Shown: positions 25,870-50,673, counted from the stretch's first letter. The stretch: DNA of 61,116 bases from Bacteroidaceae bacterium (GCA_963634425.1 CAVHCL010000128.1:8751-69866), one strand, 5' to 3'. Numbers and translations are program-made. The notes: generated by a model from the sequence alone, not told the origin.

Positions 25870-25873
25870 AAAC

Positions 25874-26093: not shown

Positions 26094-26124
26094 TTTGGAG
26101 GAAAGGGATTTTGTCATATCTTTG
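26094..26124 (+). promoter_or_regulatory. Bacteroides-type promoter P1 for the pilus-like locus
   Basis: TTTG at 26094-26097, a 19-nt spacer, then TATCTTTG (TAnnTTTG) at 26117-26124. The first ATG of the downstream gene lies at 26181. Confidence 0.55.
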
Positions 26125-26180: not shown

Positions 26181-27589
26181 ATGTCACACTCTGCCTTACA
26201 TATCATAGCAATGGTAGCCCTTTTGTTTGTGTACGACACTAGACGAGCGGGGGGGTATTTGCGCAGTCGACAAATACGGCAGACAGAACGTTCGTCACTG
26301 ACTCACATCCTATAATCTTCGTCGTAAACAGAACGGACATCAGCCCCAATGACGAAACGTGGCTGACAGACACTTTGTGCGCAAGGTTGCAGGCAATAGA
26401 GCCGCACGGCATCATAGTGGGGCGTGCGGCGACTTCGCCCGACGGACCGTACGGCAACAACCGTATGCTGGCGGAGGGACGGCGCAAGACCGTGGATCGC
26501 ATACTGCGGCGGTTGGGCTACAATACCGAAATCATACATTACGACGTGGTGGCGGAGGACTACAGTCTTCTGCTCACCATGATGCGTCTCCACCATGATG
26601 CGGACTGCGACGTGGTGGACTCGCTTGTCTCGGCATATGCGCACGAGGGCGCACACTTGAAGGCTGAACTGAAAGCAACCGACGGTGGACGGCTATGGCA
26701 GAGACTGCTGCGCGACTACTTCCCTTCGTTGCGTGCGGTGCGCATCATACCGATGGACGGCAGACTGCTGGTGGACGGAACACTGATGCCGGACTTGCAG
26801 CAGAAGGAGTTCCCTCAGACTGCGGGCACGGCACGGGCGGAACGCATAATTGGCGGAGAGCCGGCACTCCACCCTCTCACGGACTTCTCACGTCACACTG
26901 CCTACGGCTCTGCGCTACGTATGCCACGCCGCGAACTGCTGTCGGTGAAGACCAACCTTCTGTTCGACTTCGCCTATATGCCAGGCGGATACGATCGTAT
27001 CTGCCCAATCCCCAATGTCGCCATTGAGTTCTATCCACTCCATGGGCACTTCACCTACGGCGCATCGTTCGACTGTCCATGGTGGCAAGATTACGACGAA
27101 CACAAGTTCTTCCAAGTGCGCAACTACCAGTTGGAAGTGCGCTACTACCTGAAGAGCGGAGACGTGGACTACGGCAACGGGGCGGCATTCCGCGGACTTT
27201 ATGCGCAGGCTTACGTCCATGCCGGACTTTTCAGCATCTGCTTCGACGAGAACCGTGGATGGGAGGGCGAGGGCGCAGGCGCAGGACTTGGACTGGGCTA
27301 TGCGCTGCCTCTCACACGCACCGGACACTGGCGGTTGGAGTTCGGAGCGCAGTTCGGGGTGTTCTTCTCGAAATACGATCCTTACCAGTACGGGAGTGTC
27401 GTCTACCCCGGCAAACTCGATGGGTACTACTATAAATTCAACAACTTCGGCAACTTCTTCACACGGCGGCAACACCGCTTCACGTGGTTCGGCCCCACCA
27501 GGGTGGGCATCACGCTCACCTACGACTTGTTGTACAGACGCAGGGCGAAGAAGGGGACGAGCTTAAAGAGTTGGGAGGTGCAGAGATGA
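26181..27589 (+). pseudogene. OmpA-like/DUF3868-DUF3575-type outer-membrane protein gene, out of frame at a G7 tract as sequenced
   Basis: The ATG at 26181 gives MSHSALHIIAMVALLFVYDTRRAGG, then stops 34 codons later. The long frame (to 27589) is open from 26243 but has no ATG or GTG before the TTG at 26375. One extra G at 26249-26255 would join the two as ...RRAGGVFAQSTNTADRTFVTDSHPIIFVVNRTDISPNDETW.... The C-terminal half (LLSVKTNLLFDFAYMPG...IEFYPL...) is DUF3575-like. Confidence 0.7.
26249..26255 (+). repeat. G7 homopolymer at the frame junction
   Basis: The sequence ...gagc ggggggg tattt... contains seven consecutive G. Confidence 0.95.
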
Positions 27590-28761
27590 ATGCTGTGCCG
27601 CATATATGTGCTGCGGCACACAGGTGCGCTGCGGTTCTGTTCCCACTCGCAGCGGCGGTGGTGTCAGGATGCGAACGACGACCTGAACTGAATCTCGACT
27701 ACTACGAGAACGTGGTGACGAGACTACCTGTGGTGGAACTGCGCCTCGACGTGTTCTGGAACTACAGCATGGAGGGGGCAGGCTTGTATGACTGGCGTAA
27801 CGAGTGGTACTACGGATGGGACGAGGACGACAAGAAACTGTTCGGGGAGATGGGATACACCAAGCCTTCGTCGTTCCAGATACGCCGCTACTACACCGGT
27901 TCCACACCTTATGCGGCACACACCAGCGTGTCCTCCGACATCATCAGCGGATATGTCTACTCAGCGGCGTTCGATTGGGGCTTCTGGGACTTGCTGGCGT
28001 GGAACGAGGTCGCCACCGGGGACGGCGTGCAGAGCCTGCACATCGACGAGCAGTCCACGCTTGAGTACGTGACAGCGTACACGGGACAGACCATGAACGC
28101 AGCACGCTATCAGGCACCCAAGTACACAAGGTCGTTCTACCAGCCCGAGGCTCTGTTCTGCGCGTACATCGAAGGACTGAAAATCAACAAAGAACTTGAC
28201 GGATTTGAGTACGACCACGAACGCAGCGTATGGGTGAGACAGTTGGATATGCAGCTCTACCCCGTCACATACATATACCTGACGCAGGTGGTGCTGCACC
28301 ACAACAACGGCAGGGTAACCGGGGTGGACGGCAACGCCAACCTCTCTGGAATGGCGAGGAACGTGAACGTGAACACCGCAGTGGCGGGGACAGAGCCGGT
28401 GACCGTGCACTACTACGTGCGCTTCAAGAAGAACTGCGACATGAAAGGCGAGGACGTAGACATAGTGGGCGGACGGCTGATGACCTTCGGTATGTGCAAC
28501 GTCAACGGCAGCCGTGCCACGGAGGCTGTGGACGACGGAGTACGTCACTACATGGACGTGGACATGCAGTTCAACAACGGCATGGACTCCACCTTCGTGT
28601 TCGATGTCACCGAACAGGTGCGCAAACGGTACAAGGGAGGTGTGCTCACCATGGAACTGGACATCGACACCGTAAGAATCCCCACACGCAAGGGAGGCTC
28701 GGGCTTCGACGCAGTGGTCAAAGACTTCGAGGACGGAGGCACCCACGAGTTTGAGATGTGA
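27586..28761 (+). CDS. Putative pilus anchor lipoprotein (Mfa2/FimB- or DUF5119-like)
   Basis: The ATG at 27586 overlaps the upstream stop (ATGA). Lipobox ...AAVVSGC. Trp/Tyr-rich beta-type sequence. Its position directly after the DUF3575 gene and before the pilin genes matches Mfa-type operons. The family assignment is tentative. Confidence 0.55.
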   Translation: MNAVPHICAAAHRCAAVLFPLAAAVVSGCERRPELNLDYYENVVTRLPVVELRLDVFWNYSMEGAGLYDWRNEWYYGWDEDDKKLFGEMGYTKPSSFQIRRYYTGSTPYAAHTSVSSDIISGYVYSAAFDWGFWDLLAWNEVATGDGVQSLHIDEQSTLEYVTAYTGQTMNAARYQAPKYTRSFYQPEALFCAYIEGLKINKELDGFEYDHERSVWVRQLDMQLYPVTYIYLTQVVLHHNNGRVTGVDGNANLSGMARNVNVNTAVAGTEPVTVHYYVRFKKNCDMKGEDVDIVGGRLMTFGMCNVNGSRATEAVDDGVRHYMDVDMQFNNGMDSTFVFDVTEQVRKRYKGGVLTMELDIDTVRIPTRKGGSGFDAVVKDFEDGGTHEFEM

Positions 28762-28818
28762 AACAGTAAAGAAAGAAGAAACAAACATTATCAATAAACA
28801 TTTTTAATTTTTTAAGTT

Positions 28819-30549
28819 ATGAAAAAACATTATTTGTATCTTGCCACAGCACTCGCACTCGCAAGCTGTGCAAACGACGACTACTTAGACGGCACATCTC
28901 CGTTGTCTACAGGCGACGGCTACATCTCCTTCAGCATGAGCACGCCAAATGCGACACGTGGAGACCAACAGCTTACTGGTAAAGACGCCGCAATTGCCCT
29001 CAACAACGAGTTCATCGTGTGGGGTGAGAAGAACGAAGCAGACAACACTGCAACTAAAACAGAAGACCTCGTTTTCAAGAACTACCGTGTGCAGTATAAA
29101 GAAAATACCAACAACACTACTACCAGCAACACCGCAGGTTGGGAGTATGTGGGTCTCACACCTTATGAAAGCAGCAAAGTGTCGCCCTCAATCCATAAAA
29201 ACGCGAACGCTAAGCAAACCATCAAGTATTGGGAGTTTGGTAAGACTTATACTTTCACGGCTGTGTCGGCATATCAATCGGACATTACTAATGGTAATGT
29301 GAAGATAACAAAGACAGAGGGTTCAACAACCTTGGCTTCCAAAGTCAAGGGCTACACCATCGTGCTGACCCAAGGTGCTAAAGCGACGGATATTTTTGTT
29401 GCTGACCGCAAAGAGGTTAAATATGAAACAACTGCACAGTCCGTTTCTGCTGTTCAGATGCAGTTCCGCAACTTCCAGTCAAAGATACGCTTCGGTTTCT
29501 ACGAGACTGTTCCTGGATACAATGTGCAGATTACCGGGGTGAAGTACGACACCAAAGCTGATTACGTAACAACTGCTTTCGGTGTTGACGGCAAGTTCGT
29601 ACAAGTTCCTACAGGGACAAGCGACAACGACAAACTTACTTACACCGTTACCTATGACACTAACAACAAGCCTGTTGTGGATGTCACAACAGGGAGTAAC
29701 ACAGCGACAAAAAGCTATGAGGAGTTCGGCAGCTACGTCTTCAGCAAAGACCTTGGTACAACTGCAACTTCTGATGTTGTCTATGATAAGGAGAATGGTG
29801 CATACAGCTTAATCCTGCCCAATACCAACAATGATACTCCGATGTCATTTACGGTTTCCTACAAGTTGATTTCCGAGGACACAGGGGAGGAGATAACTGT
29901 CACAGACAAAAAAGTGACGGTGCCCGCCGCATACTGTAAGTGGAAGCCCAACTTCGCCTACACCTATCTCTTCAAGGTTAGCGACCAATCAACAGGTCTC
30001 TACCCCATCACCTTCGACGCTGTCGTAGAGGCTGACGAAGTTAGCAAACAAGAGACAATTACCGAAGTCGGCGAACCAAGCATCACTACGTTTGCCGTTA
30101 AGTCTGATGGCAAGACAGTCGTAGTAGACCAAGATGAATATCAAGGCAATAATACTATCTATGCCACAATTAACACGGATGGCGGTATGACAAGCTCTAA
30201 CACCAAACTTTATACGGTGACAGCGACGAGCTATGCTTCTGGCATCACCGAGGCTTCAGTTGCCAACTGTCTGGCACACGGAAAGAAAGGCAATGATACA
30301 GCTCCGACTACTTGGACAGCAACAGACCTCAACAATGGTGTATTGACGGTAACGGCTGTTACGATCAGCTCAGATGGAAGTTCGACACCAGCGTTCGTAG
30401 ACAATGTTCCTTCTGAAGATGGTAACGGAACACGCACAGTCAACGCCCTCAAGTGGACTGCAACTGCAAGCACTGTTTACGCAGTAGAGTACACCAATGG
30501 TGGTAACAAGACCTACAAGATTGTTAAGGTAGGTACTGCTGAGCAATAA
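28819..30549 (+). CDS. Type V pilin (fimbrillin/Mfa1-like lipoprotein), candidate major stalk subunit
   Basis: Lipobox LALASC. N-terminal strand plus Arg site GYISFSMSTPNATR/GD. Motifs shared with the next two genes: FRNFQSKIRFGFYETVPGY and YCKWKPNFAYTYLFKVSD...GLYPITFDAVV. Confidence 0.75.
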   Translation: MKKHYLYLATALALASCANDDYLDGTSPLSTGDGYISFSMSTPNATRGDQQLTGKDAAIALNNEFIVWGEKNEADNTATKTEDLVFKNYRVQYKENTNNTTTSNTAGWEYVGLTPYESSKVSPSIHKNANAKQTIKYWEFGKTYTFTAVSAYQSDITNGNVKITKTEGSTTLASKVKGYTIVLTQGAKATDIFVADRKEVKYETTAQSVSAVQMQFRNFQSKIRFGFYETVPGYNVQITGVKYDTKADYVTTAFGVDGKFVQVPTGTSDNDKLTYTVTYDTNNKPVVDVTTGSNTATKSYEEFGSYVFSKDLGTTATSDVVYDKENGAYSLILPNTNNDTPMSFTVSYKLISEDTGEEITVTDKKVTVPAAYCKWKPNFAYTYLFKVSDQSTGLYPITFDAVVEADEVSKQETITEVGEPSITTFAVKSDGKTVVVDQDEYQGNNTIYATINTDGGMTSSNTKLYTVTATSYASGITEASVANCLAHGKKGNDTAPTTWTATDLNNGVLTVTAVTISSDGSSTPAFVDNVPSEDGNGTRTVNALKWTATASTVYAVEYTNGGNKTYKIVKVGTAEQ

Positions 30550-30556
30550 ACTAAAC

Positions 30557-30606
30557 CGTTCCGCAAGGAACGTCAAAGCCGGGTGGGGTTCGACTCCCCT
30601 CCCGGC
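30557..30606 (+). terminator. Two tandem hairpins after the first pilin gene (attenuator or terminator; the second is tRNA minihelix-like)
   Basis: Hairpin 1: CGTTCC-GCAA-GGAACG (30557-30572, GNRA loop). Hairpin 2: GCCGGG-T-GGGG [TTCGACT] CCCC-T-CCCGGC (30578-30606), with a T-loop-like 7-nt loop. Confidence 0.55.
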
Positions 30607-30653
30607 TACAAGAAACGCTGCTACCTCCCTCCCACAAAAACGCTAAGCCGTTA

Positions 30654-30685
30654 TTTGTGAGAATTACTGGATAGTCGTATCTTTG
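30654..30685 (+). promoter_or_regulatory. Bacteroides-type internal promoter P2
   Basis: TTTG at 30654-30657, a 20-nt spacer, then TATCTTTG at 30678-30685. This is the same -7 octamer as P1. It lies 132 nt upstream of the ATG at 30817. Confidence 0.55.
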
Positions 30686-30720
30686 CAGCGAATAAAAGGA
30701 TAATGGGTGGCACTGTGCCG

Positions 30721-30808
30721 CCATAGAAGCTATAGAGAATCTATGAGATCTATAAGTCCTATAGGCTATAGAAAACCTAAAAGCATAGAGGCACTATAGA
30801 GCCTACAT
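30721..30808. repeat. Phased ~9-bp palindrome array #2 (about 10 degenerate units)
   Basis: CTATAG-type cores (CCATAG, CTATAG, CTATGA, CTATAA, CTATAG, CTATAG, CTAAAA, CATAGA, CTATAG, CTACAT) start near 30721, 30730, 30741, 30750, 30759, 30766, 30777, 30784, 30794 and 30803. Spacing is 7-11 nt with a mean near 9. The array ends 8 nt before the ATG at 30817. Confidence 0.85.
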
Positions 30809-30816
30809 AACATGTA

Positions 30817-32823
30817 ATGTATAAGAGAATAGGAGTATATATATTGGCGGTGGGCCTGACGGCCTGTGTGGACGACTACTACAACGGGGGCTACTCTGCT
30901 CCCAACGGAGGAGGCATCTCTTTCGTCAATGCAGTCGTGCCTTTCACCCGTACCGGGAAGACCGGCAAGAATGCCGCCGATATGCTTGGAAACAGGTTCT
31001 TCGTCTATGGCATAAAGAACGAGAGCTTAGGCGCAGACGCTCTTGCCGCCGAAAACCTTGTGTTCCAAAACTACAAGGTGACGTACTCCGACGGCACCGG
31101 AGGTTCCTCCGTGGACAACAGCAGCGGATGGGGATATATAGGCAACGCCCTTTCCTACGACGAGGCTGCCAACCTGCGGGACAACATCGGCACTGCCGCA
31201 CAGGCCGTGAAATACTGGGACTACAATGCCGCCGACTATACCTTCTATGCGTTTGCCATCGCCAACAACGACCTTGAGGACGGCAAGATGAAGGTGACGA
31301 AGAACACCGGCAGCACCTTTGACACCTATCGCAACGGCTACACCATAGAGATGGCTGCGGATGCCGAGCCTACAGACCTCTATCTTGCCGACCGCATACA
31401 CATAACGGCATCCTCCAACACCGACCAGACACAGAGCAACGCCTACGGCGGCAAGGTGAGCTTCAACTTCCGCAACGCCATGGCGAAGGTGCGCGTGGGG
31501 ATGTACGAGACCGTCCCCGGCTATTCGCTCACCATCGACGCATTCCGCACTGTCGACGAGACAATGCCTTCGTTCGGTGACATGACGACGGAGAACACCG
31601 GTCAGTTCGCCGCCAACCTGAGCCACAACACACCGTACAAGGAGGGTACTATGACAGTGACGTACACAGACCGACACGCCACGGAAGAGAACATACCAGT
31701 GGTCGTTTTCGGCGGGACGAAGGACAATGTGCTCACTCTCGGCGACAACCTCCGGCAAGGGACGGTGCTCGGCGACAACGCCGCCGACGTGGTATACGAC
31801 AAGAGCGACGACGGCTATACCGCCATATATCCCATGGAGTACAACGCCCACAGTCTGAAGGTGAAGATGGACTTCACCCTGAAGTCCAAAGTGGGCGAGA
31901 CCATAGAGGTGAGGAACGCCACGGCGGAGGTGCCGGCCGCCTACTTGAAGTGGAAACCGGGATGTGCCTACACCTACATCTTCAAAATCAGCGACCAGAC
32001 CAACGCCACCGTAGGCAGCCTCACTGGGCTCTACCCCATAACGTTCGACTGCGTGGCAGTCAGCGACGGCACAGGAGAGGAGGAGAAGATATCCAACACA
32101 GGCAATGATGTCAACATAGTCACCATGGGCTACAACCCCGACTTGCGGCTCGTCACCGTGGGGCATGATGACTACAATGCCGGCAACACCGTCTATGCGT
32201 CATTCGTGGACAACAACACCCTCGTGACCGCCACATCGTCAAACACGAGACTCTTCGTCGCCACCACCACCGACCCAGAGAACTACCCCGTCACGCAAGC
32301 CAACGTGTCGACGTACATCAACAGCTACACCGCCGACAACACCCTCGTGGACCAACCTGTGACGGTGTACGGGCAGACTATAGCCGACGACGACTTCGTG
32401 AACGAGGTGCCTATGGGCGACGGCACCGATGCCATGCGTTCCTTGCCGGCAGTGAGATGGACGGCGGAGAGACGCGTCTACGCCGTGGAGTACACCACCT
32501 CGGACTCCAAGAGATATTACAAGATAGTGAAGGTGGACGGCTACGACGGACAGACCTCCGGCACGCTGTCGCTCAATCCTGCTGTAATAGAAAACTCCGG
32601 CGGCACAATAACACCGTCACTCACTGTGGACGGCATCACGGCATCCAATGCCGATGTCACGTACGCCCTCGACGCCGATGTGCCGTCGGGAGTGACCGTC
32701 AACGACAACGAGTCGGAGAATGTAACCATCACGGTGCCCGGCCAGACAACGGCAGGCACCTACACCATCATCGCCACCTACAACCGCAGGACGTACAGGA
32801 CATCCTTCAAGGTAAACCAGTAG
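30817..32823 (+). CDS. Type V pilin (fimbrillin/Mfa1-like lipoprotein), paralog 2, with a C-terminal Ig-like extension
   Basis: Lipobox GLTAC. GGISFVNAVVPFTR/TG. FRNAMAKVRVGMYETVPGY. YLKWKPGCAYTYIFKISD...GLYPITFDCVAV. Confidence 0.75.
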   Translation: MYKRIGVYILAVGLTACVDDYYNGGYSAPNGGGISFVNAVVPFTRTGKTGKNAADMLGNRFFVYGIKNESLGADALAAENLVFQNYKVTYSDGTGGSSVDNSSGWGYIGNALSYDEAANLRDNIGTAAQAVKYWDYNAADYTFYAFAIANNDLEDGKMKVTKNTGSTFDTYRNGYTIEMAADAEPTDLYLADRIHITASSNTDQTQSNAYGGKVSFNFRNAMAKVRVGMYETVPGYSLTIDAFRTVDETMPSFGDMTTENTGQFAANLSHNTPYKEGTMTVTYTDRHATEENIPVVVFGGTKDNVLTLGDNLRQGTVLGDNAADVVYDKSDDGYTAIYPMEYNAHSLKVKMDFTLKSKVGETIEVRNATAEVPAAYLKWKPGCAYTYIFKISDQTNATVGSLTGLYPITFDCVAVSDGTGEEEKISNTGNDVNIVTMGYNPDLRLVTVGHDDYNAGNTVYASFVDNNTLVTATSSNTRLFVATTTDPENYPVTQANVSTYINSYTADNTLVDQPVTVYGQTIADDDFVNEVPMGDGTDAMRSLPAVRWTAERRVYAVEYTTSDSKRYYKIVKVDGYDGQTSGTLSLNPAVIENSGGTITPSLTVDGITASNADVTYALDADVPSGVTVNDNESENVTITVPGQTTAGTYTIIATYNRRTYRTSFKVNQ

Positions 32824-32826
32824 AGA

Positions 32827-34017: not shown

Positions 34018-34038
34018 GAAGAACAAAAGGACAGAGAA

Positions 34039-35061: not shown

Positions 35062-35085
35062 TGTGAAACAAAAGCATACGCTATA

Positions 35086-44000: not shown

Positions 44001-47000
44001 ACCGCTGCACATCGACGGTGTGACACTCGTCAACAACCAGGCCAACAAGGATGTCAACGGTGCCGCCATCTTCTACGGTGACCTTGCCGACGACATCACG
44101 GCTTCCACACCAGCCCACGTCTCGATAAACACCTATTACACTGACGCGGAAAAGTCCGAAGAGTCCGAGGAGCCTACACGCTACTACAACCGCACCGTGG
44201 ACAAGTACTACACCGATGCCACGTACCAGGTGGTGTCGGAGACGGAGACACCGTTTGTCTCTTACAAGTATGCGGAGACCACTGCCAACAAGATTGTCAT
44301 CAGCAAGAGCAAGATAATGAACAGCGGTTCCTATGCCGACGACGACCACTCCACCTGCGCCGTGTACATAGGAAAGAACGGAGGCAATGCGTTGCTCTAC
44401 AACAACGTGATGCACAGCAATACAGGCAATCCGCTTGTCTCGGCAGTGCCCACCACCATCGTCAACAACACATATGCCCTCAACAAGGGACGCGTAGACC
44501 TCAACGGCGAGAACACCAGAGTGTCGTCGCTCGTCATCAACCAAGACGACAACGACGGCAACTACGACCCCGACGGACCTATGCTTGCGCCTCACCACCA
44601 GCGGCGCGCCCCATCGGCTGCCACTGGCTCGGCAATATTCAACAGCGTGTTCTGGCGCAACAACAACGACGGTGTGCAGTTTGTACTGCCAGGGTTCGTC
44701 AGCGCACAGAAGTCGGGCTCCATATTCTCGCACAATGCCGTTACGGGGTACAGCACCGATGTGAGCGACTACTCCCTACCCGACATACCCGACCAGAACT
44801 ACAACGTGGGACTCTCTGACGAGAACAGCGACATCATCAACGGTCCCAACTTCGCAGACCCTAAACAGGAAGCCACGCTGGCAGACGACATAGAGTTGCG
44901 CAACTTCACTCTGCTGCCCTCACTGCGTCTGCTCAACAAAGGCAACAACACCCTCTACAACGACAACGTTATCAAGAACCCCGACACGTATAATATATAC
45001 GACCTGGCGTGGATGACCACCACACGCACCGATGCCGGCGGCGAGCAACGCTTCGTGTACGACATAGACCTCGGTGCATATGAATATCAGAACAACCTCA
45101 ACCGCATCATCTACGTCAACCCCAACGTGAGTGCCACGGGACTGGGCAACTCGTGGGCCGACCCTGTGGCTTACGGCAACCTGCAGGCAGCCATAGACCT
45201 TGCCGCGGTGTATCATGTGAACAACGTAGACGAAGAGGCGTACGTGTTCGTCAAGGGAGCCGGCACAAGCTCCGCCGGACTGCACCTCGGCGAGTCGGTA
45301 ATCATGCGCGACGGCGTGAGCGTGTACGGAAGCATACTCCCCACACGCACGGAGGACTGCCCATACACCACAACCTCCAGCAACGGCATACGTGAATATG
45401 CGCAGACCGAAATAGACAAGTACGTGGCAACCGTCACCGCCGAGCGCGGAGGACTTGCCGACCCCACCGCCGGCACCACCACCGTCAGCGGTATCAAGAC
45501 TCCCAGCTCCACGACGTTCAACAACACCAACGCCGAGATAGTGTCCGTAGTCGACGGCTTTGCCGTCACTGCCACCAACAGAAAGAACCCCTCGGGCACT
45601 GTCGCACAACCGGTAATAAACGTGCAGCCGTTTAACTCCGACGGACGCGTGGCTCTGCGCAACATCATAGTACACGGCAACGACTTGTCCGCCCAACGGC
45701 TCACCGACCTCGCCACAGTGGACAATGCCCTCATATATGAAGCCCTGTTCCGCGACAACAAGGTGGACGACACTGGATGCCATCTGCGCATCGGGCGCAA
45801 CGGCTATGGGGTGAACCTCACCGTAGAGGGCAGAACAGTGGGAGCAGACGGGAATGTCACCTACAACGGTACCGACAGCAAGGACGGAGACCATATCTTC
45901 AACTCGCTCGTCAACTATACCGGACACCCTGCCACAGAAAACACCCTCTCGGGCTATAATTACAAGGTGAGCGCCCCCAACCTCAACTACCAGCTCACAG
46001 AGATGTCAACACACATAGACCAGTGCGAAGCAGTCAACCCGATGAAGGATGTGCCGACACTGAAGCAGTTCATCAACTACGACACCGACCGCGACCTCCT
46101 TGGCAACCTGCGTCTGCTCAGGGGCGTGAGCACCGAAGACAAGGTAGACCGCGGTGCATTCGAGACATGGCGTGTGGACCAGGACGTTGTCTGCACGTCG
46201 AAGGATGCTGACGGCAACCTCACCAACTACTACCCACACGTCGGTTCGGTAGTCTACATCATGCAGGGCAACAGCCTTGTGATGGAGCAGTATGAGACCC
46301 AAGCCGCCGAAGGAGTGACAACGCAGACCTCTGGCACCGCCTTGCGCCCTGCCTATCTGCTCGTACAGGACGGCGCGTCGCTCTACGGCAACGGCAACGC
46401 CGTCAGCGTGAGCTATGTGGGAGTGGAGCGGGAGACGAGCAAAGACGGCTCCATGGTGAGTCTGCCTTACGCCATGCAGTATGGGGGGACGGACATCGCC
46501 TCCAACGGTACGGGAGCTCCGGCATACTCTGCCGACGGCGTGCTGACACTCTCCGCCGACAAGGCCGGGACATATTCCTACAACGGCGTGGGACGCTCGG
46601 CATGGAACTCCACATTCTACAACACGGCTTCGCCGCAGTGGACAGAACTCACCGACGTGACGACCGACTCCAACAAAGGCATACTCTACAAATCTGCCGC
46701 CGACAAGCTCTACCGTTTCACTGCACAGGGCGATGCCGACAACATGGACTCCTATGTGTACACCGAGACTGCAGGCGAGATAAGCAAGACGGTGGAACTG
46801 CAGCAGTACGACGACCGTGTCTCCACCGACGGCGCTGCGGACTTCACGGAGAAGGAGGACATGGGATGGAACTGCATCGGTCTGCCTTGGCTCGTGAGTG
46901 ACTATGACACATCAGCGAAGGAGACTCTCAGCGGTGACAGCCACTACAACATGGACATACCTCACACCCTGTGGCTGTGGTATGACGGCAAGACATATCT

Positions 47001-47475
47001 CGACGGCACAACGGCGGCAGACGGCGACGGTGGCTTCTACAGCGTAAGCTCGTGGGACACCTCCGACTGGCATCTCGCCACCGGCGACAAAGCTCGCATC
47101 TGGACAGGCGAGGGCATCTTCACACAGACCGCAGCCGTAGCGGACAAAGAGGAACTCACCTTCCATCGCCCGGTGTACAACCACACGACACGCGCCAAGG
47201 GAACGGGAGCTCCGTCCGTGCGGCACAACGTGCGCCGCTATGCCGCAGAGCCCGACATTGACGACGCACAGGGCGACATAGAGATACGGGTGTACGGCCA
47301 CGAAGTGTACATAAGCGGACTGCAAGGCGGCGAGGAGATAGACATCTACGACGCTTCCGGACGGAGACACGCCTCGGCAAAGGCGCAAAGCAAGCAGTAC
47401 AAGACTGTAGTAACCGCCGACGGAGTGTACATAGTAAAAGTAGACGGCAAGTTGAAGAAAGTGATAGTCAGATAG
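35086..47475 (+). CDS. Giant (4129 aa) secreted multi-module right-handed beta-helix protein with a T9SS C-terminal sorting domain
   Basis: Signal peptide MQRKIVGLLIFTILSLLCPPGGAAQ. Seven modules each open with a cap like (I/V)(Y/F)V..G.G.SW..P...LQ.AI and close with D.GAYE. Many GGG(V/I)Y and N-N-x-A beta-helix rungs. The last ~70 aa, ...EIDIYDASGRRHA...ADGVYIVKVDGKLKKVIVR, look like a type A T9SS CTD. Confidence 0.85.
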   Translation: MQRKIVGLLIFTILSLLCPPGGAAQEVRYVSKGGAYSNDGKSWEKAKSNIQDAINDLVDNGLTGEVWVAHGIYTPTESTESTGGSTLYMSFKIPAGISVYGGFKGDETSKEAREENATKSFGNVYKYSTILSGDLSSSAEFTWNTTRERWETSFYGNCYHVVFFATNGFDATGRAKPNGGGKQSALLEGCVIEHGNAYNSDLSGRPHNAYGGGVYMVEGSCLKNCLVRQCVSYRDGGGVYMDGGGYIEHTAVMDCQTVGIGISYGMGGGVCMDGPDTYSASYTPMVMRRSGVFGCVGRMGGGVAIVANDTDGDNKYKIACSAVVVANNTATNEAGGIYMNSGGVITQATVVNNKCNGAGIITNGIANGRSAGVYCRNNAIVSNSVLWGGVCSANNDIQYATSRSGSGTELSPNIMYTSLSQSDYTDWSGVIKDNVTKLSKYNSSADGTAYASEGYPLFSNPTPNAGYVSSAQRTQFIYDGTSSIADGVTLYDNMGVEVNADNIKLGTTYYTDVAMQTVAVEGRDYTYLGAAYDFQPLSRSSLNHRGVLTIDLDRYGRTPAYEIDKDVMGKSFTPRPTLGAYLTTHTTIEPQTVTASGKTTVNFYVAPNDDGGTEYTSIGSSWNQPIRFFSDAMAFIKEQSYPSATTVNVYVKEGTVNNTNTSAVGRIRTTDIGIPGNVNIYGGYSSDNTGTDLDKRSPTACLTIITGDAQDDYALNVSHLLTFDGTENTVLDGFAIRNANARGTEKIEGTPVTVGAAMTFNNATGVKIRNCSVAGHTASEGAAADMTDSEVYFENCIFHNNESRTLDADGNAVSNTGNIVVRTGSTASFSHCNFIRNVGNAIDSYGTVKVVNSVFYGNMSEPLEDTRGNEDKALTAVRLFNGGTFTGDHNLFDSKSAAFIANNSLDGTNEAILTYAFSSTSTTYPRFMNPTKNAGVSPSGNVTYYGKATSFMPHNNNPMVNRASTVDSDGAETDDHAEWGTDMTGTVTRDYGGLPDIGAIENHESAVADEGEKAYPDGQKAYGKVLYVRNYRNDDGTVDNSTTDRDGYSWSRAINGNATYSGVNGFQYALNMANTLWNADQTTQHEVHVGAGTYTANLTWKEGVNVKGGYPAEGNPGENERSISNTKAEHMTVINGNGNGRVLTQYANFSTAAVFEGFTIQDGYTTGTNYGAGVYLLSGGTLKNCLVQNNTYSASSRNTNYCQGGGGIYMNDGSIVKNCKIMKNYVYANNYQSFFGGAGVYAAGGTLINSLIVENTTDSRKNNLLGAGLYIYQTSSLYNCTIAYNVAVSAGPDGDYAATGGVWDAAAKHQGGGKYINQSRFYNCIIWGNYANGRTAENLIQVGMSGFSDQAGNTNDAFHTCYSSAWSKTYASDDASDVNKVMIVGTGTGSASNYLAFYNNSKANEPFVRDDYDNTDYSLKATATQCINKGSEYQELTNLDITVDINGEERIQDCTIDKGAYEYNQSLDINPEIITTTGSTNNKRVFYVTPDGRGTASADSPANAACASKLQKVLDAAGRYKYNYPSDTVIVKVANSASLAAAGENFQYYACRTTDEGDQSARVWSIMVPRGVEVWGGYTDTYTSDDDNGFYTKDSAGNTADNRDITGNPTYFDSYYYNKSEKQYTYTYHVVTFTDRVFDGEGYPYEEGDTIGEPSTWKEGDKYMSMSEKTADRAVIDGLFVTGGNADAQVPNSANATADINQYGGAAIVTDYAHVRNCIVRGNNGTYGGALALTHNALVSGCLIDQNTADYGGAVYMFEEGTTLSDGTVVDTKSSGTAVDENMAHVYTSTIVNNTANKQGGGIWFGQSSDDMNIRVNSSVIWQNNSVNQANVSGLYNATKAADDPLTTIEFYPFAFCAVQNLLVPGLNNIQLGNLNSSGVRFAAKGNADDDHNTIAKESTDDDTHGKYDDFGYYALTDYSSLIRNGMPSEQYSALVTSAGLSAFDFAAEDRLVSTGRNRTSIEMGARALDKILDSRQLMLRIFVARSEDINMDAAQTMMNLAATAAEGSDEEYYSQEGSSFAFPMQSLQDALDYIIEARSLNGVKTGLNQEGSNNLPFEICLGRGTYYPRHNIDNVHINSSGNSFAIPEGVSVYGGFAIDNPDREKSYFGRYYKEGDNPAGYTNVLSDNVKSVVETDNDTLVSIGGSDGYAIDQLPISKLKPRRRTLDNNGNNIIEPWEFENQTILSGDVSYQAANGSYHVVTLVADQNVTGMLPKAAEPTSDALDYSVYTTANGEGSYAYEQGQDIVLDGLQIVSGHALHYTEGSTDYTNMYNHYLGGGIFVNGNRYCDDYNKKTSLAAEGFGTIEYKHSGISESVGYRNIPLIIANCKFTNNTAGGGGALCSNGLVNIYSSVFEQNRSVSGCETLLDINGDEKEVAYAGIGGAVLATYQLRVYNTLFANNEAYDERLNEKPTEFKRMLADETRSLLGGAGGAVYVGRFGFFHILNCDFVRNRANAYPVMFTMNPNRDFTDGRNGGIGEGNPLRPTTTYYNQFVNTLFWGNDINDEMSKKYDSVNPLFKFNSRLFCNYAPGEFSGIYSAPDFTDDTKIPSDLTALDGNSTSRHSDFGETAWYCAYEYGRGTTPHNITDMRNLGFLPHVYARDMIHSEGEKKGADTYQNCNIRLSSENSDLEGPNFVNPSLTAGYDGYYESADWSPARLSNLVDNGAGKIAQEITLENEVYKTSFKEYTSENIPSRSIYYNNGNADGYTTETVGDYDTEGVYTTTRVLNTYDRNRTYLPVGEMTYMESSATGQALYRISYDPNPTHNQTYIDIGVYEYPHTELQYTTTGDEVDILWVSPFEKPDNGLPNGSAWSQPTSDLQRAIETLLASRNGHRKEIRLMDGPFTPIYNIEDKLAFTIDTKAINESVTMPVKAYEEDGKTVKEYDTGKGVVSLTIKGGYSRELNNVYNPLEYPAVIRQQARSHATSDRWNYLFYIHDGTQRYGYNTYNEANGYGNYADSDGEGYSKTVNTIPLHIDGVTLVNNQANKDVNGAAIFYGDLADDITASTPAHVSINTYYTDAEKSEESEEPTRYYNRTVDKYYTDATYQVVSETETPFVSYKYAETTANKIVISKSKIMNSGSYADDDHSTCAVYIGKNGGNALLYNNVMHSNTGNPLVSAVPTTIVNNTYALNKGRVDLNGENTRVSSLVINQDDNDGNYDPDGPMLAPHHQRRAPSAATGSAIFNSVFWRNNNDGVQFVLPGFVSAQKSGSIFSHNAVTGYSTDVSDYSLPDIPDQNYNVGLSDENSDIINGPNFADPKQEATLADDIELRNFTLLPSLRLLNKGNNTLYNDNVIKNPDTYNIYDLAWMTTTRTDAGGEQRFVYDIDLGAYEYQNNLNRIIYVNPNVSATGLGNSWADPVAYGNLQAAIDLAAVYHVNNVDEEAYVFVKGAGTSSAGLHLGESVIMRDGVSVYGSILPTRTEDCPYTTTSSNGIREYAQTEIDKYVATVTAERGGLADPTAGTTTVSGIKTPSSTTFNNTNAEIVSVVDGFAVTATNRKNPSGTVAQPVINVQPFNSDGRVALRNIIVHGNDLSAQRLTDLATVDNALIYEALFRDNKVDDTGCHLRIGRNGYGVNLTVEGRTVGADGNVTYNGTDSKDGDHIFNSLVNYTGHPATENTLSGYNYKVSAPNLNYQLTEMSTHIDQCEAVNPMKDVPTLKQFINYDTDRDLLGNLRLLRGVSTEDKVDRGAFETWRVDQDVVCTSKDADGNLTNYYPHVGSVVYIMQGNSLVMEQYETQAAEGVTTQTSGTALRPAYLLVQDGASLYGNGNAVSVSYVGVERETSKDGSMVSLPYAMQYGGTDIASNGTGAPAYSADGVLTLSADKAGTYSYNGVGRSAWNSTFYNTASPQWTELTDVTTDSNKGILYKSAADKLYRFTAQGDADNMDSYVYTETAGEISKTVELQQYDDRVSTDGAADFTEKEDMGWNCIGLPWLVSDYDTSAKETLSGDSHYNMDIPHTLWLWYDGKTYLDGTTAADGDGGFYSVSSWDTSDWHLATGDKARIWTGEGIFTQTAAVADKEELTFHRPVYNHTTRAKGTGAPSVRHNVRRYAAEPDIDDAQGDIEIRVYGHEVYISGLQGGEEIDIYDASGRRHASAKAQSKQYKTVVTADGVYIVKVDGKLKKVIVR

Positions 47476-47478
47476 GTT

Positions 47479-47522
47479 TTCTAGAAGTTCTAGAGACTCT
47501 AAAAAATCTAGAAGATCTATAA
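47479..47522. repeat. Phased 9-bp palindrome array #3 (5 units, plus a degenerate unit over the stop codon)
   Basis: The 8-mers TTCTAGAA, TTCTAGAG, CTCTAAAA, ATCTAGAA and ATCTATAA start at 47479, 47488, 47497, 47506 and 47515, an exact 9-bp period. The array fills the 60-nt gap between the giant gene and the next gene. Confidence 0.9.
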
Positions 47523-47535
47523 AAACAACAAACGT

Positions 47536-50500
47536 ATGAGAAACTATATAAACAAGATATTGCTCTGCATGGTGTTCCTCATAGGCATCGTGGCGACTGC
47601 CGCTGCCGACAATCTCTATGTCATCACCGACGGCAACGGCAACTACCTCGCCAACAATGGAGGAACTCTCACCAATGCCACCACCTTCAACCCCAAAACC
47701 TGTATGTGGACGTGCTCGGGAACAAGCAGCGGAACACTGAGTAACCAAGGGCATTATCTGTATGGGGATAGATCATCTTTGTCGTTGAAAACATCTTCTT
47801 CCGACGGCACATCGTGGACAATATCCAACAACAGGGTGTATACCACACCTTTGTTTTCCACCTATTACATAACCTACAACAACAGCAAGTGGACTACGAG
47901 TCGGTCTGGCGGTGCTTCCATCTACTCAACAACCTTGAAGCAGACTGCCAAATCTGGCACCGTGACTGTGGAATACGACAACACACAGACATTCGAACGT
48001 GAGGGCGACACGCGCGACTATTATGTGAGCGCAGTGTCATACACCCCAGCATACAACACCTACACTTGGACGGAATCCGGCGGCACAAAGACTTGGTATG
48101 CGTCGTCTGACGACAGTTATGCGTCAGAAACAGCACCGTCGGAGGTAACCACAGTGTCGGCCTACGAATGGACTTCCAGCCATTCCAACATCTCCGTCAC
48201 CAAGGACAACGAACATCCCGAGCAGGCAACGGCTTCCTACGACACTAAGTTCTCCTCCGAGACGACCGTGACCATCACCGCCACAGCCACAATACCGCAG
48301 TCCGCCAGTGAGTTCATGACATCCGATGCCACCATGAGCGGCACTGTCACAGCCACGCTGCTGCCGCGCCACCTTACCGACATACAGATTTCCGCCAGCA
48401 CGACGGCACTCTACATAGGCGACACAGGGTCGTTGACCGTCACCACAAATTCCAACGGTGCGGTGACATACACCTCCAGCGACACGTCAATAGCGGAAGT
48501 CTCCACAGACGGAGTGATTACCGCCAAAGGTACTGGCAACAAAAACGCTGCTGAAGTGCAGATAACTGTAAGCACGTCGCAGACCGACGACTACGAGGCA
48601 GCCTCCGCCACATTGACCATTGAGGTGAGGAAACGTCCCGCAAAGATAGACCTCCAGTACGACAAGTCCTCTCTGACCTACGGCGAGGCGGTGCCTGTGC
48701 TCACCTCGTCCACGCTGACCGACGGCATCAGCGGCGAAGAGATTAATAAGGGGAAAATAAGCTTCTCGTCTTCCGTCACACACATACAGGCTGATGCCTC
48801 CACCGGTGCCATCACTGTAGACAAGGCTGGCATCGCCACTATCACCGCCACGTTTAGCGGCAACAAAACCTATGCGAAGGCGGAAGCGACGTTCGACATT
48901 ACCGTAAGCAAGGCTGCCACTACGCTCTCCTTTCCCGAGACGGACTATTTCGTGCTCTACACCCAAGGCTTCACCGCCCCAGCCGCCACGCTCACCCCTA
49001 CGGATGCCGGAACGGTGAGCTACAGCTGCGTATCAACTCCCGAGGGAGCTGTGACGATAGACGGGAGCACCGGAGCTGTGACCCTTAACGCCATGGAGGC
49101 GGAAGCCACCGTCACAGCCTCGTTTGCCGGCAACGACTGCTACGAGCCCTCCGAAGCATCGTACAAGCTCACGGTGAGCACACGCGCCATCCCCACCATA
49201 ACCGCCACCGTGCCCTCGTCACTTTACGTGGATGACTCTCGTACGGTAAGGGCCTCTACCAACAGCTCCGCAGGTATCGTCTACTCCTGCGACGACACGG
49301 ATGTGCTCACCATAGACGAGGCTGGCAAGATGACCACCGTAGGCGAGGGAAAGGCCGTGGTGAAGATTACCTCAACGGAAGACGACGATTACATAACACT
49401 GACCAAGGAGTACACGGTGGAGGTGAAACGGTATCCCACGGAACTCATGGTGACTTATCCCTACGACATCTACCACACCGACTACGAGGGGCAGATAATG
49501 CCCTCCGTGACACTCCGTGAGACAGTGAACAACTCTCTGATAGGCCAAAACGAATTAGGTGGAGAGGTCACGTACAGTGCTGTGCCGAGCACAGTGCTGA
49601 CAGTGGACGATCTGACTGGAGAGGTGACAATAACAGGCAACGGAACTGCGGTCATCACAGCCTCTTACGAGGGCAACCACAAATACGAACCGTCGTCGGG
49701 AACATTCGTCATGCAAACACACAAGGTGGCAGGCCCAGGCTCCTTCATCAGACTGAAAGACCCGGACGGCAACTATCTGAATACCAATGGGACCACCGTC
49801 AGTGTGACCGCCGACGAAGACGCGTCCTCTATAATATGGTATGGGAAAGACCGTTCACTGCTCTTCTACCAGTGCGGGCTTTATCTGAAAGACACCTCAC
49901 CGGCACTGATGTCCCCTATAGATGTCGGCGAAAGCGGCAACAGTTTCTCGCTCACCCGTACGGGACATGTGTACACCGTCAGCGACGGCACAGGCAGTCT
50001 GACTTCAGGGAGCAACAATGAATGGACTGTGGAATTTGTAGAATACCTGCCGCTCACGTTCAAAAGTGCCGGCTACGGTTTCTCCACCATCTACTGCCCC
50101 TGCAACCTGTCGAGCCCGGCAGGAGTGGTGGCATACTATCCCACAGATCGTAATGCCGACGACACTGGTGCCGCCGACTTCGTGATAACGCTGAAGTCCA
50201 TGCCGGGCAACTTCATACCCCATGGTACTCCTACTGTGCTGCACACGCAGTACGTGGGCACGTACAACTTCCACATCATAGAGGAGGATGTGTACGACAT
50301 CACCGACCGTTGGGACGGACTCGCCGGCACACTGCCCACGTTAAACACCGCCTCGGCATACTCGGGTACACAGTGTCCCTACACCCTGCAGCCCGACAAG
50401 TCGGAGTCAGCCGGCTTCTATCCGTGGAGCAGTCAACGACACACTACAATAGAGCCTTTCCGCTGTTACATACCGGGCGAAAACGCCGCCAATGCCAGGA

Positions 50501-50673
50501 GTTTCCGCTTCGACATGGAGGACAACGGGACGGATACCATAAACAGTACTGCCGACGATGATGCCTCGGACGACAAGGTGTACAACCTCCAGGGTATGTA
50601 TATGGGCGACGGCTTGCAGCGTCTGTCTGCCGGGGTGTATGTGAGGGGCGGCAAGAAAGTTGTGAAGAAATAG
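47536..50673 (+). CDS. T9SS-sorted surface protein with tandem Ig-like (Big_2-type) domains
   Basis: Signal peptide MRNYINKILLCMVFLIGIVATAAA. Big_2-like repeats (e.g. ISASTTALYIGDTGSLTVTTNSNGAVTYTSSDTSIAEVSTDGVITAKGTG). C-terminal KVYNLQGMYMGDGLQRLSAGVYVRGGKKVVKK is a T9SS CTD. Confidence 0.8.
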   Translation: MRNYINKILLCMVFLIGIVATAAADNLYVITDGNGNYLANNGGTLTNATTFNPKTCMWTCSGTSSGTLSNQGHYLYGDRSSLSLKTSSSDGTSWTISNNRVYTTPLFSTYYITYNNSKWTTSRSGGASIYSTTLKQTAKSGTVTVEYDNTQTFEREGDTRDYYVSAVSYTPAYNTYTWTESGGTKTWYASSDDSYASETAPSEVTTVSAYEWTSSHSNISVTKDNEHPEQATASYDTKFSSETTVTITATATIPQSASEFMTSDATMSGTVTATLLPRHLTDIQISASTTALYIGDTGSLTVTTNSNGAVTYTSSDTSIAEVSTDGVITAKGTGNKNAAEVQITVSTSQTDDYEAASATLTIEVRKRPAKIDLQYDKSSLTYGEAVPVLTSSTLTDGISGEEINKGKISFSSSVTHIQADASTGAITVDKAGIATITATFSGNKTYAKAEATFDITVSKAATTLSFPETDYFVLYTQGFTAPAATLTPTDAGTVSYSCVSTPEGAVTIDGSTGAVTLNAMEAEATVTASFAGNDCYEPSEASYKLTVSTRAIPTITATVPSSLYVDDSRTVRASTNSSAGIVYSCDDTDVLTIDEAGKMTTVGEGKAVVKITSTEDDDYITLTKEYTVEVKRYPTELMVTYPYDIYHTDYEGQIMPSVTLRETVNNSLIGQNELGGEVTYSAVPSTVLTVDDLTGEVTITGNGTAVITASYEGNHKYEPSSGTFVMQTHKVAGPGSFIRLKDPDGNYLNTNGTTVSVTADEDASSIIWYGKDRSLLFYQCGLYLKDTSPALMSPIDVGESGNSFSLTRTGHVYTVSDGTGSLTSGSNNEWTVEFVEYLPLTFKSAGYGFSTIYCPCNLSSPAGVVAYYPTDRNADDTGAADFVITLKSMPGNFIPHGTPTVLHTQYVGTYNFHIIEEDVYDITDRWDGLAGTLPTLNTASAYSGTQCPYTLQPDKSESAGFYPWSSQRHTTIEPFRCYIPGENAANARSFRFDMEDNGTDTINSTADDDASDDKVYNLQGMYMGDGLQRLSAGVYVRGGKKVVKK

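Follow-up and report, generated by a model that had tools for sequence, protein, structure and literature searches.

A putative Mfa-type pilus operon with a giant T9SS-type cargo in the Mfa5 position in a Prevotella-like gut bacterium

Results

The locus consists of eight open reading frames (g1-g8), all on the + strand, at positions 26181-50673 of the window, by which we mean the whole 61,116-nt stretch of DNA that was analysed (Table 1). Their sizes, places and common orientation matched those given in the first-pass annotation, and the measured spacing from g1 to g8 (-4, 57, 267, 3, 24, 24 and 60 nt) reproduced its description of gaps of -4 to 60 nt with a single one of 267 nt. When the N-termini were read, signal peptides ending in Cys were seen in g2 (VVSGC), g3 (LASC), g4 (LTAC), g5 (LCCC) and g6 (PMAC), and the residues after the lipobox Cys were acidic in g3-g6. 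No gene of the T9SS machinery (porK-N, sov, porV, porU) was found within the 61-kb window. An origin of the locus by insertion between duplicated methyltransferase genes was considered and rejected, the identity of these genes over the SAM-binding fold being only 25%.

Table 1. Genes and sequence features of the locus, numbered from the first letter of the window.
Feature	Position	Strand	Description
Promoter-like motif 1, Bacteroidetes-type	26094..26124	+	TTTG, 19 nt, TATCTTTG; consensus match only
g1	26181..27589	+	N-terminal domain fused to C-terminal DUF3575 outer-membrane barrel
g2	27586..28761	+	391-aa lipoprotein, DUF5119 family, candidate Mfa2-like anchor
g3	28819..30549	+	576-aa type V pilin-fold lipoprotein, additional C-terminal domain, invariant Arg47
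Conserved 12-bp hairpin	30577..30607	+	tRNA T-arm-like apex GGGGTTCGACTCCCC; just past g3 stop
Promoter-like motif 2	30654..30685	+	TTTG, 20 nt, TATCTTTG; in 267-nt gap; consensus match only
g4	30817..32823	+	668-aa paralogue of g3, 35% identity
g5	32827..34017	+	396 aa, paralogous to g3, limited to the core pilin domains
g6	34042..35061	+	339-aa type V pilin-fold lipoprotein
g7	35086..47475	+	4129 aa, Sec signal peptide, without lipobox
g7 beta-helix modules (~7)	roughly aa 27-592, 600-1003, 1010-1464, 1475-2045, 2050-2779, 2785-3335, 3340-3695		
g7 pre-CTD domain	46183..47220	+	aa ~3700-4045; motifs YPHxGSVVY, GASLYGNG
g7 C-terminal sorting domain	47233..47472	+	type A ('long') T9SS CTD, TIGR04183
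g8	47536..50673	+	1045-aa secreted protein, Ig-like (Big_2/Big_3_5) repeats
g8 tail	50533..50670	+	46 aa; fits 'short CTD' motifs B, D, E of Prevotella T9SS cargo

The first two genes would form an outer-membrane base. g1 had been described as OmpA-like/DUF3575; the DUF3575 half was recovered (6e-13), and the OmpA-like half was not, with no Pfam model matching it even at E <= 10. Homology was instead seen between the N-terminal domain of g1 and the DUF3868-like second gene of related loci, in the C-terminal part of the latter. Nor could g1 be kept as a whole gene: an intact ORF is absent, the reading frame being broken at a run of seven G (the G7 tract, 26249-26255) that divides the frame of the ATG at 26181 from that of the remainder of the gene. 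One additional G, or two fewer, would restore a protein of 469/470 aa. With this frameshift in the sequence as it stands, the present copy of g1 may be switched off or damaged. The annotation of g2 as an Mfa2/DUF5119-like anchor stood at the level of the family, in which 33 of 43 members matched DUF5119, and not for g2 by itself (23.3 bits, under the cut-off of 27). Searched against PDB sequences, the g2 profile found the pilin-fold structure 5cag (E 2.6e-6), the one line of support for a pilin fold in g2. In hhalign the g2 family aligned over its full length with the Mfa2-family proteins of related loci (P 1.1e-4, probability 57%, 312 columns). PF08842 (Mfa2/FimB family) had no match in g2; it was matched by all five Mfa2-family proteins from the related loci. 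We therefore place g2 in a DUF5119 family with distant resemblance to Mfa2 anchors, and regard it as a candidate anchor.

Sequence comparison, together with the lipobox Cys, upheld the description of g3, g4 and g5 as three mutually paralogous lipoproteins; the additional C-terminal domain is present in g3 and g4. The AF2 model of g3 (pLDDT 81) returned in Foldseek, as its top 16 matches, Bacteroides and Parabacteroides 'cell adhesion' pilin structures at probability 1.00, and PG_0181 appeared further down the list (rank 27, probability 0.87). These JCSG 'cell adhesion' entries are, we presume, the founding set of type V pilins. For g6 (pLDDT 83, pTM 0.82) Foldseek likewise supported the pilin fold at probability 1.00. 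Its matches included Mfa3 (5nf4) and BF1861 (3sy6), which carry explicit fimbrial labels, and P. gingivalis Mfa3 was among the best structural matches, in keeping with the suggestion that g6 is a fourth pilin-like lipoprotein. The models of g3 and g6 thus agree with the proposal that the lipoproteins are type V pilins, and the fold is predicted for g4 and g5 by paralogy. PDB sequence searches with g3 and g6, as single sequences and as family profiles, gave nothing useful. Such searches were uninformative save for g2 to 5cag; the pilin relationship was revealed by fold comparison alone. Known Bacteroidales type V pilins (3up6, 4h40, 3pay, 4jg5, 3sy6, 5cag) likewise have a two-domain beta-sandwich, a lipoprotein precursor and the Arg site; they differ from the proteins here in identity (8-14%) and in the added C-terminal domain of g3 and g4, and a T9SS partner is named in none of their Foldseek descriptions. 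No Pfam model covers the g3 family (> 4300 members), and its sequences showed no similarity to those of the Mfa1/FimA stalk.

The g3 and g6 families have the lipobox Cys, the first strand and a conserved Arg in common. This Arg lies in a loop after the first strand, which is of low confidence in the models, and it was found in 30/30 members of the g3 family (Arg47) and 31/35 of the g6 family (Arg49). An Arg after the first strand is a hallmark of protease-primed strand exchange. g3 is a candidate for the major (stalk) subunit and g6 for a tip or adaptor subunit.

Promoter-like motif 1 lies 57 nt upstream of the g1 ATG. The second motif shares the 267-nt gap with the hairpin, which is backed by four compensatory pairs and is a candidate terminator, processing or stabilising element. 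The two together suggest that g4-g8 may be a sub-operon, with the distal genes perhaps transcribed apart from the stalk gene. Scans for sigma-70-type promoters and intrinsic terminators stayed at chance level, and Rfam and ARAGORN searches of the window gave no matches.

Both distal proteins, g7 (N-terminus MQRKIVGLLIFTILSLLCPPGGAAQE) and g8 (N-terminus MRNYINKILLCMVFLIGIVATAAADN), begin with a Sec-type signal peptide. As Leu precedes the signal-peptide Cys, these are not lipoboxes, which confirms the earlier statement that the two proteins lack one. No vWA family match was found in either. In g7, about seven modules are recognisable, as had been proposed. A choice_anch_Q cap (NF041518) at aa 1426-1464 scored 31.6 bits (cut-off 25), and GGx[ILV] motifs numbered 15 vs 3.9 +/- 1.9 in shuffles. 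Homologues of g7 carry PF13229, PF02415 and PF18962, with PF13229 in those of 34-36% identity, and the Pfam matches on g7 itself, Chlam_PMP among them, were below threshold. BLAST self-comparison found no internal repeats, the modules being visible only through caps, HMMs and motifs, and PDB sequence searches with full-length g7 and with its N-module profile gave nothing useful. A beta-helix/PMP character of the giant is thus probable from its sequence. Ahead of the sorting domain lies the pre-CTD domain, which is conserved at the C-terminal end of the giants in genomes and metagenomes. It has no PDB sequence relative, and its first alignment was too divergent for search patterns. We consider it a candidate docking domain.

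The first-pass annotation had placed T9SS CTDs on both distal proteins. For g7 this held: TIGR04183 scored 25.8 bits on the last 110 aa alone (cut-off 23; 18.1 bits, under the cut-off, in the full-length scan), and CTD-like tails end 72/76 orthologous giants. Of 53 C-terminal tails in an alignment (those of 50 orthologous giants, together with the g7, g8 and 1177-aa tails of the window), 19 matched TIGR04183/PF18962 at E <= 0.01. The giant is therefore a predicted T9SS-type cargo. For g8 no Pfam or NCBIfam CTD model matched the tail even at E <= 10. The tail resembles the 'short CTD' class (hhalign P 3.6e-4), for which there is experimental evidence from Prevotella intermedia (Ye et al. 2025, PMC11969387). 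With a fit at motif level only and no CTD model match, we do not count g8 as proven cargo. Of about 70 metagenomic loci, only 2 have g8 behind the giant, and a metagenome search with g8 alone found nothing. g8 is lineage-specific and lies outside the conserved cassette, so that 'two T9SS cargos' did not hold up as a unit. The tail of a 1177-aa protein elsewhere in the window (57357..60890) also fits the short CTD motifs.

At least 160 matches came from genomes at species level and 103 from metagenome contigs, and the operon logic recurs in Prevotellaceae of gut and rumen, in Paludibacteraceae and in further Bacteroidales. A g6-family gene directly precedes the giant in all 71 related loci with upstream DNA. 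The refuting case named in the first-pass annotation, a giant without an adjoining pilin gene, was thus not seen among them, and no examined case lacked this adaptor-cargo gene pair. g1-like genes were found upstream of the giant in 34/46 loci. Distant loci show the order DUF3575, DUF3868-like, ~600-aa lipoprotein, Mfa2-family, g6-like and ~4000-aa giant, and this six-gene order is retained in homologues of only 25-27% identity. Iterative searches gave no link between the ~600-aa lipoproteins of these loci and g3 or g5, and similarity to g3 was undetectable. Because the arrangement recurs in over 80 independent genomes, it is far from a chance one.

Discussion

We give about even odds (roughly 0.5) to reading the locus as an Mfa-type type V pilus operon in which the slot of Mfa5 is occupied by a giant T9SS cargo. 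Mfa5 had been put forward as the precedent for a T9SS cargo on such a pilus, and the literature documents it: Mfa5 depends on the T9SS, sits at the tip and has Mfa3 as its bridge (PMC8512630). A T9SS cargo other than Mfa5 on an Mfa-type pilus was not found in the literature. In P. gingivalis mfa1-mfa5, too, there are a stalk lipoprotein, an Mfa2-type anchor, Mfa3/4-type tip pilin(s) and, in last place, a large non-lipoprotein with a T9SS CTD, and the related loci reproduce this order exactly. Moreover, mfa5 is variable and sometimes duplicated (PMC8512630), and the distal genes here are variable too. However, the operon described here opens with DUF3575/DUF3868-like outer-membrane genes, which are outside the five mfa genes of the review (PMC8512630), and its host is a Prevotella-like gut bacterium rather than Porphyromonas. 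Mfa5 has ~1200 aa with vWA and Ig-like domains, whereas g7 has 4129 aa and ~7 beta-helix modules, and no similarity between the two was detected; as it has no vWA match, g7 is analogous to Mfa5 by position and export route and is not a family member.

How such an appendage might be built can be outlined from the gene content. The pilin-fold lipoproteins g2-g6 would leave the cell by the lipoprotein route, and g1 (DUF3575 barrel and periplasmic domain) with g2 (DUF5119/Mfa2-like) would provide the outer-membrane base. g3, probably with g4 and g5, would be cut at the conserved Arg that follows the first strand and polymerise by strand exchange, and the fibre would be capped by g6, the Mfa3-like pilin encoded beside the giant, as adaptor. 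The type A CTD would take the giant across the outer membrane and then be lost, and the giant would be held at the fibre end via the conserved pre-CTD domain. We infer polymerisation and the subunit roles. Synteny and the Mfa precedent are the grounds for supposing that the giant is physically attached as a tip or accessory subunit.

The most specific form of this idea, which we offer tentatively and hold to be possible rather than probable, is a composite appendage encoded by a conserved six-gene Bacteroidales cassette (DUF3575 barrel, DUF3868-like protein, stalk lipoprotein, Mfa2-type anchor, Mfa3-like adaptor and ~4000-aa beta-helix). A short, lipoprotein-derived type V pilus would carry a T9SS-delivered fibre, some tens of nanometres long by a rough estimate from typical beta-helix geometry, and the pre-CTD domain of the giant would dock to the adaptor pilin or exchange strands with it. 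For P. gingivalis, a review calls the mechanism by which tip proteins bind to the Mfa1 fibre unknown and notes that assembly of Mfa5 may differ (PMC8512630). For docking determinants, a comparative data set is supplied by the g6 family together with the pre-CTD domain conserved in the giants, and cultured carriers (Prevotella brunnea A2672, Hallella absiana YH-C38, Hallella mizrahii LKV-178-WT-2A and Prevotella sp. AGR2160) exist for genetics. The same operon logic is widespread in Bacteroidales with a very different cargo module, and several large, unannotated protein families, the g3 pilin family among them, are added. Were the giant indeed on the pilus, few known fimbrial adhesins would be larger, and it would matter for the attachment of abundant gut Prevotella to host or fibre. 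A composite appendage, if true, would be a general and tractable model of two outer-membrane export routes converging on one organelle.

The pilin genes and the giant could also be neighbours because both serve adhesion, their products being co-regulated and physically separate: an ordinary type V pilus, and a giant cleaved by a PorU-type sortase and fixed to anionic LPS on the cell body. It is to this LPS that ordinary T9SS cargo is attached, and a pilus is not needed for this. The type A CTD of g7 and its orthologues is the signal of such LPS-anchored cargo, and the internal promoter-like motif ahead of g4 fits the same arrangement. Prevotella species possess a T9SS (PMC11969387), and P. intermedia has a pectin-lyase-fold cargo that, like g7 with its long CTD, combines beta-helix, Sec signal and CTD, in a report that does not mention fimbriae (PMC11969387). 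That cargo, however, has 1-3 pectin-lyase domains and no pilus context, unlike the ~7 modules and the fixed pilin-gene neighbourhood here (PMC11969387). We think separate structures unlikely: the adjacency of the g6-family gene and the giant in 71/71 loci, down to 25% identity, is tighter than co-regulation usually gives, and the conservation of the pre-CTD domain among the giants and the Mfa5 precedent also speak for attachment.

It is less probable still that no pilus is made and that non-polymerising pilin-fold lipoproteins with the DUF3575 barrel form a short outer-membrane platform or chaperone set holding the giant fibre. The pilin fold alone does not prove polymerisation, and pilin-fold lipoproteins with non-pilus roles are known, e.g., PG1881; in one report, a fimbria-like lipoprotein is targeted to outer-membrane vesicles (PMC11225709). 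The additional C-terminal domains on g3 and g4 and the lack of detectable similarity between g3 and the ~600-aa lipoprotein of distant loci would also suit a platform. On the other hand, the near-invariant Arg after the first strand in the g3 and g6 families, the Mfa2-family anchors in related loci and an operon order that mirrors mfa1-mfa5 all favour the pilus.

That the giant is chiefly an enzyme, a pectate-lyase-fold polysaccharide lyase or hydrolase for glycan foraging and not adhesion, is very improbable: the fold class is common to pectate lyases and module 2 of g7 has a weak CBM_6 match (E 0.0019, below cut-off), but g7 matches no catalytic family model, no PUL genes are nearby in the window, and PMP-type GGx[ILV] repeats with choice-of-anchor Q caps are typical of adhesins and passenger domains. 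The same repeats, the choice_anch_Q cap and the PF02415 matches of its homologues recall the chlamydial PMPs/choice-of-anchor Q proteins and point to modules of a parallel beta-helix, adhesin-like kind. Chlamydial PMPs, however, are type V autotransporters with a barrel of their own, whereas g7 carries a T9SS CTD and is several times longer.

Conservation of the pilin genes with the giant gene

The first-pass annotation had described eight co-oriented genes of a type V pilus-like locus (g1-g8), and all were found on the + strand at 26181-50673 with the sizes and spacing claimed, the intergenic gaps from g1 to g8 being -4, 57, 267, 3, 24, 24 and 60 nt. ftsK and genes for a thioredoxin-reductase-like protein, a DUF5687 protein, an ABC ATPase and a methyltransferase lie upstream, and a small membrane ORF, a methyltransferase, a Mur ligase, folP, cdaA, pta and ackA lie downstream. 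Because housekeeping genes flank both sides, the locus is an island-like chromosomal block rather than a mobile element. The small membrane protein is encoded by a 101-codon ORF starting 12 nt past the g8 stop. No terminator was found after g8, and since no terminator-like site lies between its stop and this ORF, the 3' boundary of the operon is undefined by sequence.

A profile of the giant's N-terminal module, scanned against one genome per species, gave 160 relatives, 80 of which were fetched (Prevotella, Hallella, Alloprevotella, Paludibacteraceae and other Bacteroidales). Wherever more than 1.3 kb of upstream DNA was available (71 loci), the gene immediately preceding the giant, and co-oriented with it, belonged to the g6 pilin family; giants without adjoining pilin genes, which would have spoken against the proposed linkage, were looked for and none was found. 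g1-like genes were present in 34 of the 46 loci for which upstream DNA exceeded 7 kb, and in 75 of 80 the giant ORF ran off the fetched DNA without a stop, mostly at 3800 residues or above. Close relatives have the order g1, g2, two to four g3-family copies, g6, giant. Furthermore, a six-gene order was kept in distant loci down to 25-27% identity: a DUF3575 protein (~200 aa), a DUF3868-like protein (~445 aa), a ~600-aa lipoprotein, a ~340-aa lipoprotein matching Pfam Mfa2 in 5/5 cases (two above cut-off), a g6-like protein and the giant (~4000 aa). This order of stalk, anchor, tip and T9SS cargo is that of mfa1-mfa5. The closest relatives (61-76% identity; L005-L013, L017, L024) are MAG records titled Faecalibacterium prausnitzii, Bifidobacteriaceae, Lachnospiraceae, Clostridium sp., Gemmiger, Oscillospiraceae or Lactococcus garvieae; the labels of that CAV... 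submission look scrambled, since the gene content is plainly Bacteroidales.

As the best-supported reading, we propose that the locus encodes an Mfa-type pilus working like Mfa1-5, in which a giant T9SS-exported beta-helix adhesin would occupy the Mfa5 slot, g6 would be the adaptor and the conserved domain ahead of the giant's C-terminal sorting domain (CTD) would be the docking module. To the genomic identity of the system we assign a probability of roughly 0.85; that the giant is physically coupled to the pilus is close to a coin toss. The giant is not a member of the Mfa5 family and, in contrast to Mfa5, has no vWA domain; no similarity to Mfa5 was detected. A full-text literature search returned no paper joining type V pilus genes to a beta-helix T9SS cargo; on DUF5119 it gave nothing of relevance, and DUF3575 was mentioned only in passing. 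The study of P. intermedia T9SS cargo does not mention fimbriae (PMC11969387). The system is widespread, unannotated and open to experiment in a few cultured carriers.

The giant protein g7

g7 carries a Sec signal peptide without a lipobox. It matched no Pfam family above threshold, and NCBIfam choice_anch_Q scored above cut-off at aa 1426-1464. Homologues that share 34-36% identity with modules 1 and 2 contain Beta_helix; Chlam_PMP and Por_Secre_tail occur in more distant ones. PMP-type GGx[ILV] motifs occur 15 times (3.9 +/- 1.9 in shuffles). Five clear C-terminal caps ("D.G..R...D.GAYE") and two degenerate ones were seen, and an HMM of module 1 picked up N-caps or cores in modules 3, 4, 5 and 7, with a weak match in 6. 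From the caps and HMM matches, the earlier count of seven modules is fair as "about seven"; the beta-helix itself is a prediction drawn from choice_anch_Q, the homologues' domains and the GGx[ILV] motifs. Among the relatives returned by a protein database search, none exceeded ~1800 aa, and g7 itself was absent.

After the last module comes the ~350-residue pre-CTD domain (aa ~3700-4045; motifs YPHxGSVVY and GASLYGNG), the most conserved part of the giant across relatives and without a relative in a PDB sequence search. That g7 ends in a T9SS CTD was supported: its last ~80 residues, scanned alone, passed TIGR04183 (25.8 bits, cut-off 23), and the full-length scan gave 18.1 bits, under the cut-off. 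A CTD-like tail was present in 72 of the 76 orthologous giants with ends captured. The main rival to a pilus-borne giant is that it is LPS-anchored as ordinary cargo and merely co-regulated with the pilins. In several metagenome contigs the giant was called as two abutting or overlapping genes (for example 1300+2539, 1765+2623, 1758+2187 and 1188+2801 aa), which could be frameshifts, assembly errors or genuine two-gene variants.

The pilins and base genes

g3, g4 and g5 are paralogous (35% and 24% identity). The g3 family, with more than 4300 members, lacks a Pfam domain and is not named in any source. The predicted g3 structure (pLDDT 81), with an additional domain beyond ~residue 420, matched 17 PDB entries at E <= 0.001. 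Bacteroides/Parabacteroides "cell adhesion" lipoproteins fill the first 16 places (probability 1.00), and P. gingivalis PG_0181 came lower (rank 27, E 3.9e-3, probability 0.87). g6 showed no sequence similarity to g3-g5, and its confident model (pLDDT 83, pTM 0.82) matched the same structural set, together with Mfa3 (5nf4), a tip pilin of P. gingivalis, and BF1861, a fimbrial protein. The models of g3 and g6, and the paralogy of g4 and g5, place these proteins in the type V pilin fold, as claimed earlier. Both families have a lipobox Cys, acidic residues, a first strand and then an Arg in a disordered loop (30/30 g3-family and 31/35 g6-family members), an arrangement described for protease-primed type V pilins (PMC8512630). 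A second rival has these pilin-fold lipoproteins making up an outer-membrane platform without polymerising; a third, that the giant acts as an enzyme, is less likely. In one Prevotella subgroup (L022, L025-L030, L033, L046), the g6-family gene directly upstream of the giant is about twice as long (620-700 codons, ~2 kb ORFs), which suggests an adaptor pilin fused with another domain.

g1 is, by comparison of sequences, a fusion of two conserved cassette genes, because its halves correspond to separate genes of related loci. The DUF3575 barrel in its C-terminal half (6e-13) is the counterpart of their first gene. For its N-terminal half no Pfam hit was obtained even at E <= 10; this half is homologous to the last ~190 residues encoded by their second gene, a ~445-aa protein with weak DUF3868/OmpA marks. 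As sequenced, g1 is broken: a G7 run puts the ATG at 26181 out of frame, and +1 G (G8) or -2 G (G5) restores a protein of 469/470 aa, signal peptide included. This could be a homopolymer or assembly error or slipped-strand switching, with the "off" state of phase variation in the operon's first gene as one candidate. Intact orthologues (L017, L019-L021) have no counterpart of the tract at the protein level. g2 is a lipoprotein scoring just under the DUF5119 cut-off, which 33 of 43 diverse relatives matched (best 3.6e-26). Its family profile hit 5cag (2.6e-6), also among the g6 pilin-fold matches, and could be aligned end to end with Mfa2-family proteins from distant loci (P 1.1e-4, probability 57%). 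An anchor role for g2 is plausible but not proven.

Putative transcription signals and other probable T9SS cargo

Bacteroidetes-type TAnnTTTG and upstream TTTG motifs occur 57 nt before g1 and within the 267-nt gap. Directly 3' of the g3 stop is a 12-bp hairpin whose apex GGGGTTCGACTCCCC is invariant in eight lineages and identical to the tRNA T-arm consensus; compensatory changes are seen in four of its pairs. A-C(C/A)A often follows, giving the look of an acceptor/T-arm minihelix, and neither Rfam nor ARAGORN matched it. Possible functions are RNase P/Z-type processing, termination or stabilisation of the mRNA. A strong stem behind the first pilin gene and then a promoter would suit a role of g3 as abundant stalk subunit, the distal genes being controlled separately or attenuated. 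The g4 leader has three direct ~22-nt repeats (CATAGARGCTATAGAGAAYCTA), placed after the promoter-like motif and ahead of the ATG, and TCTAGA-type palindromes cluster directly upstream of the locus.

Positions of the genes, signals and related features
Feature	Sequence	Position (nt)
TCTAGA-type palindromes	window	25866-25914
g1	window	26181-27589
G7 run in g1	window	26249-26255
g2	window	27586-28761
g3	window	28819-30549
Hairpin	window	30577-30607
Direct repeats	window	30722-30805
g4	window	30817-32823
g5	window	32827-34017
g6	window	34042-35061
g7 (giant, 4129 aa)	window	35086-47475
g8 (1045 aa)	window	47536-50673
101-codon ORF	window	50686-50991
1177-aa secreted protein	window	57357-60890
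Same hairpin	L005	5472-5486
Same hairpin	L006	4747-4761
Same hairpin	L009	4339-4353
Same hairpin	L016	5414-5428
Same hairpin	L017	4966-4980
Same hairpin	L019	7705-7719
Same hairpin	L024	869-883
Split giant	L002	10001-21470
Split giant	L003	3006-16391
Split giant	L165	10001-21903
Split giant	L166	10001-21951

g8, a secreted protein with Ig-like repeats, had also been named as T9SS cargo of the locus. No curated CTD model matched its tail. The last 46 residues contain motifs B (VYNLQG), D (GVYV) and E (GGKKVVKK), spaced as in the "short" CTDs reported from Prevotella intermedia, which are cleaved and glycosylated as long ones are (PMC11969387). The tail profile aligned with Pfam-positive CTDs in the correct register (P 3.6e-4), and the giants of L086 and L088, both followed by a g8 homologue, end in this short tail in place of the long CTD of other giants. 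These three lines favour a sorting signal, so that g8 as cargo is probable but unproven; its place in a conserved unit did not hold, since g8 follows the giant in only 2 of ~70 loci (downstream content elsewhere varies) and is not part of the conserved system. Elsewhere in the window, a 1177-aa secreted protein without a Pfam match is probably a further T9SS cargo: its final 40 residues (ET/GISGIGSADSQAGKIYNMAGQQVEKAGKGIYIVNGKKVIY) agree with the short CTD described in print, down to a PT/GI-like cleavage motif, and its C-terminal ~95 residues share 28% identity with g8.
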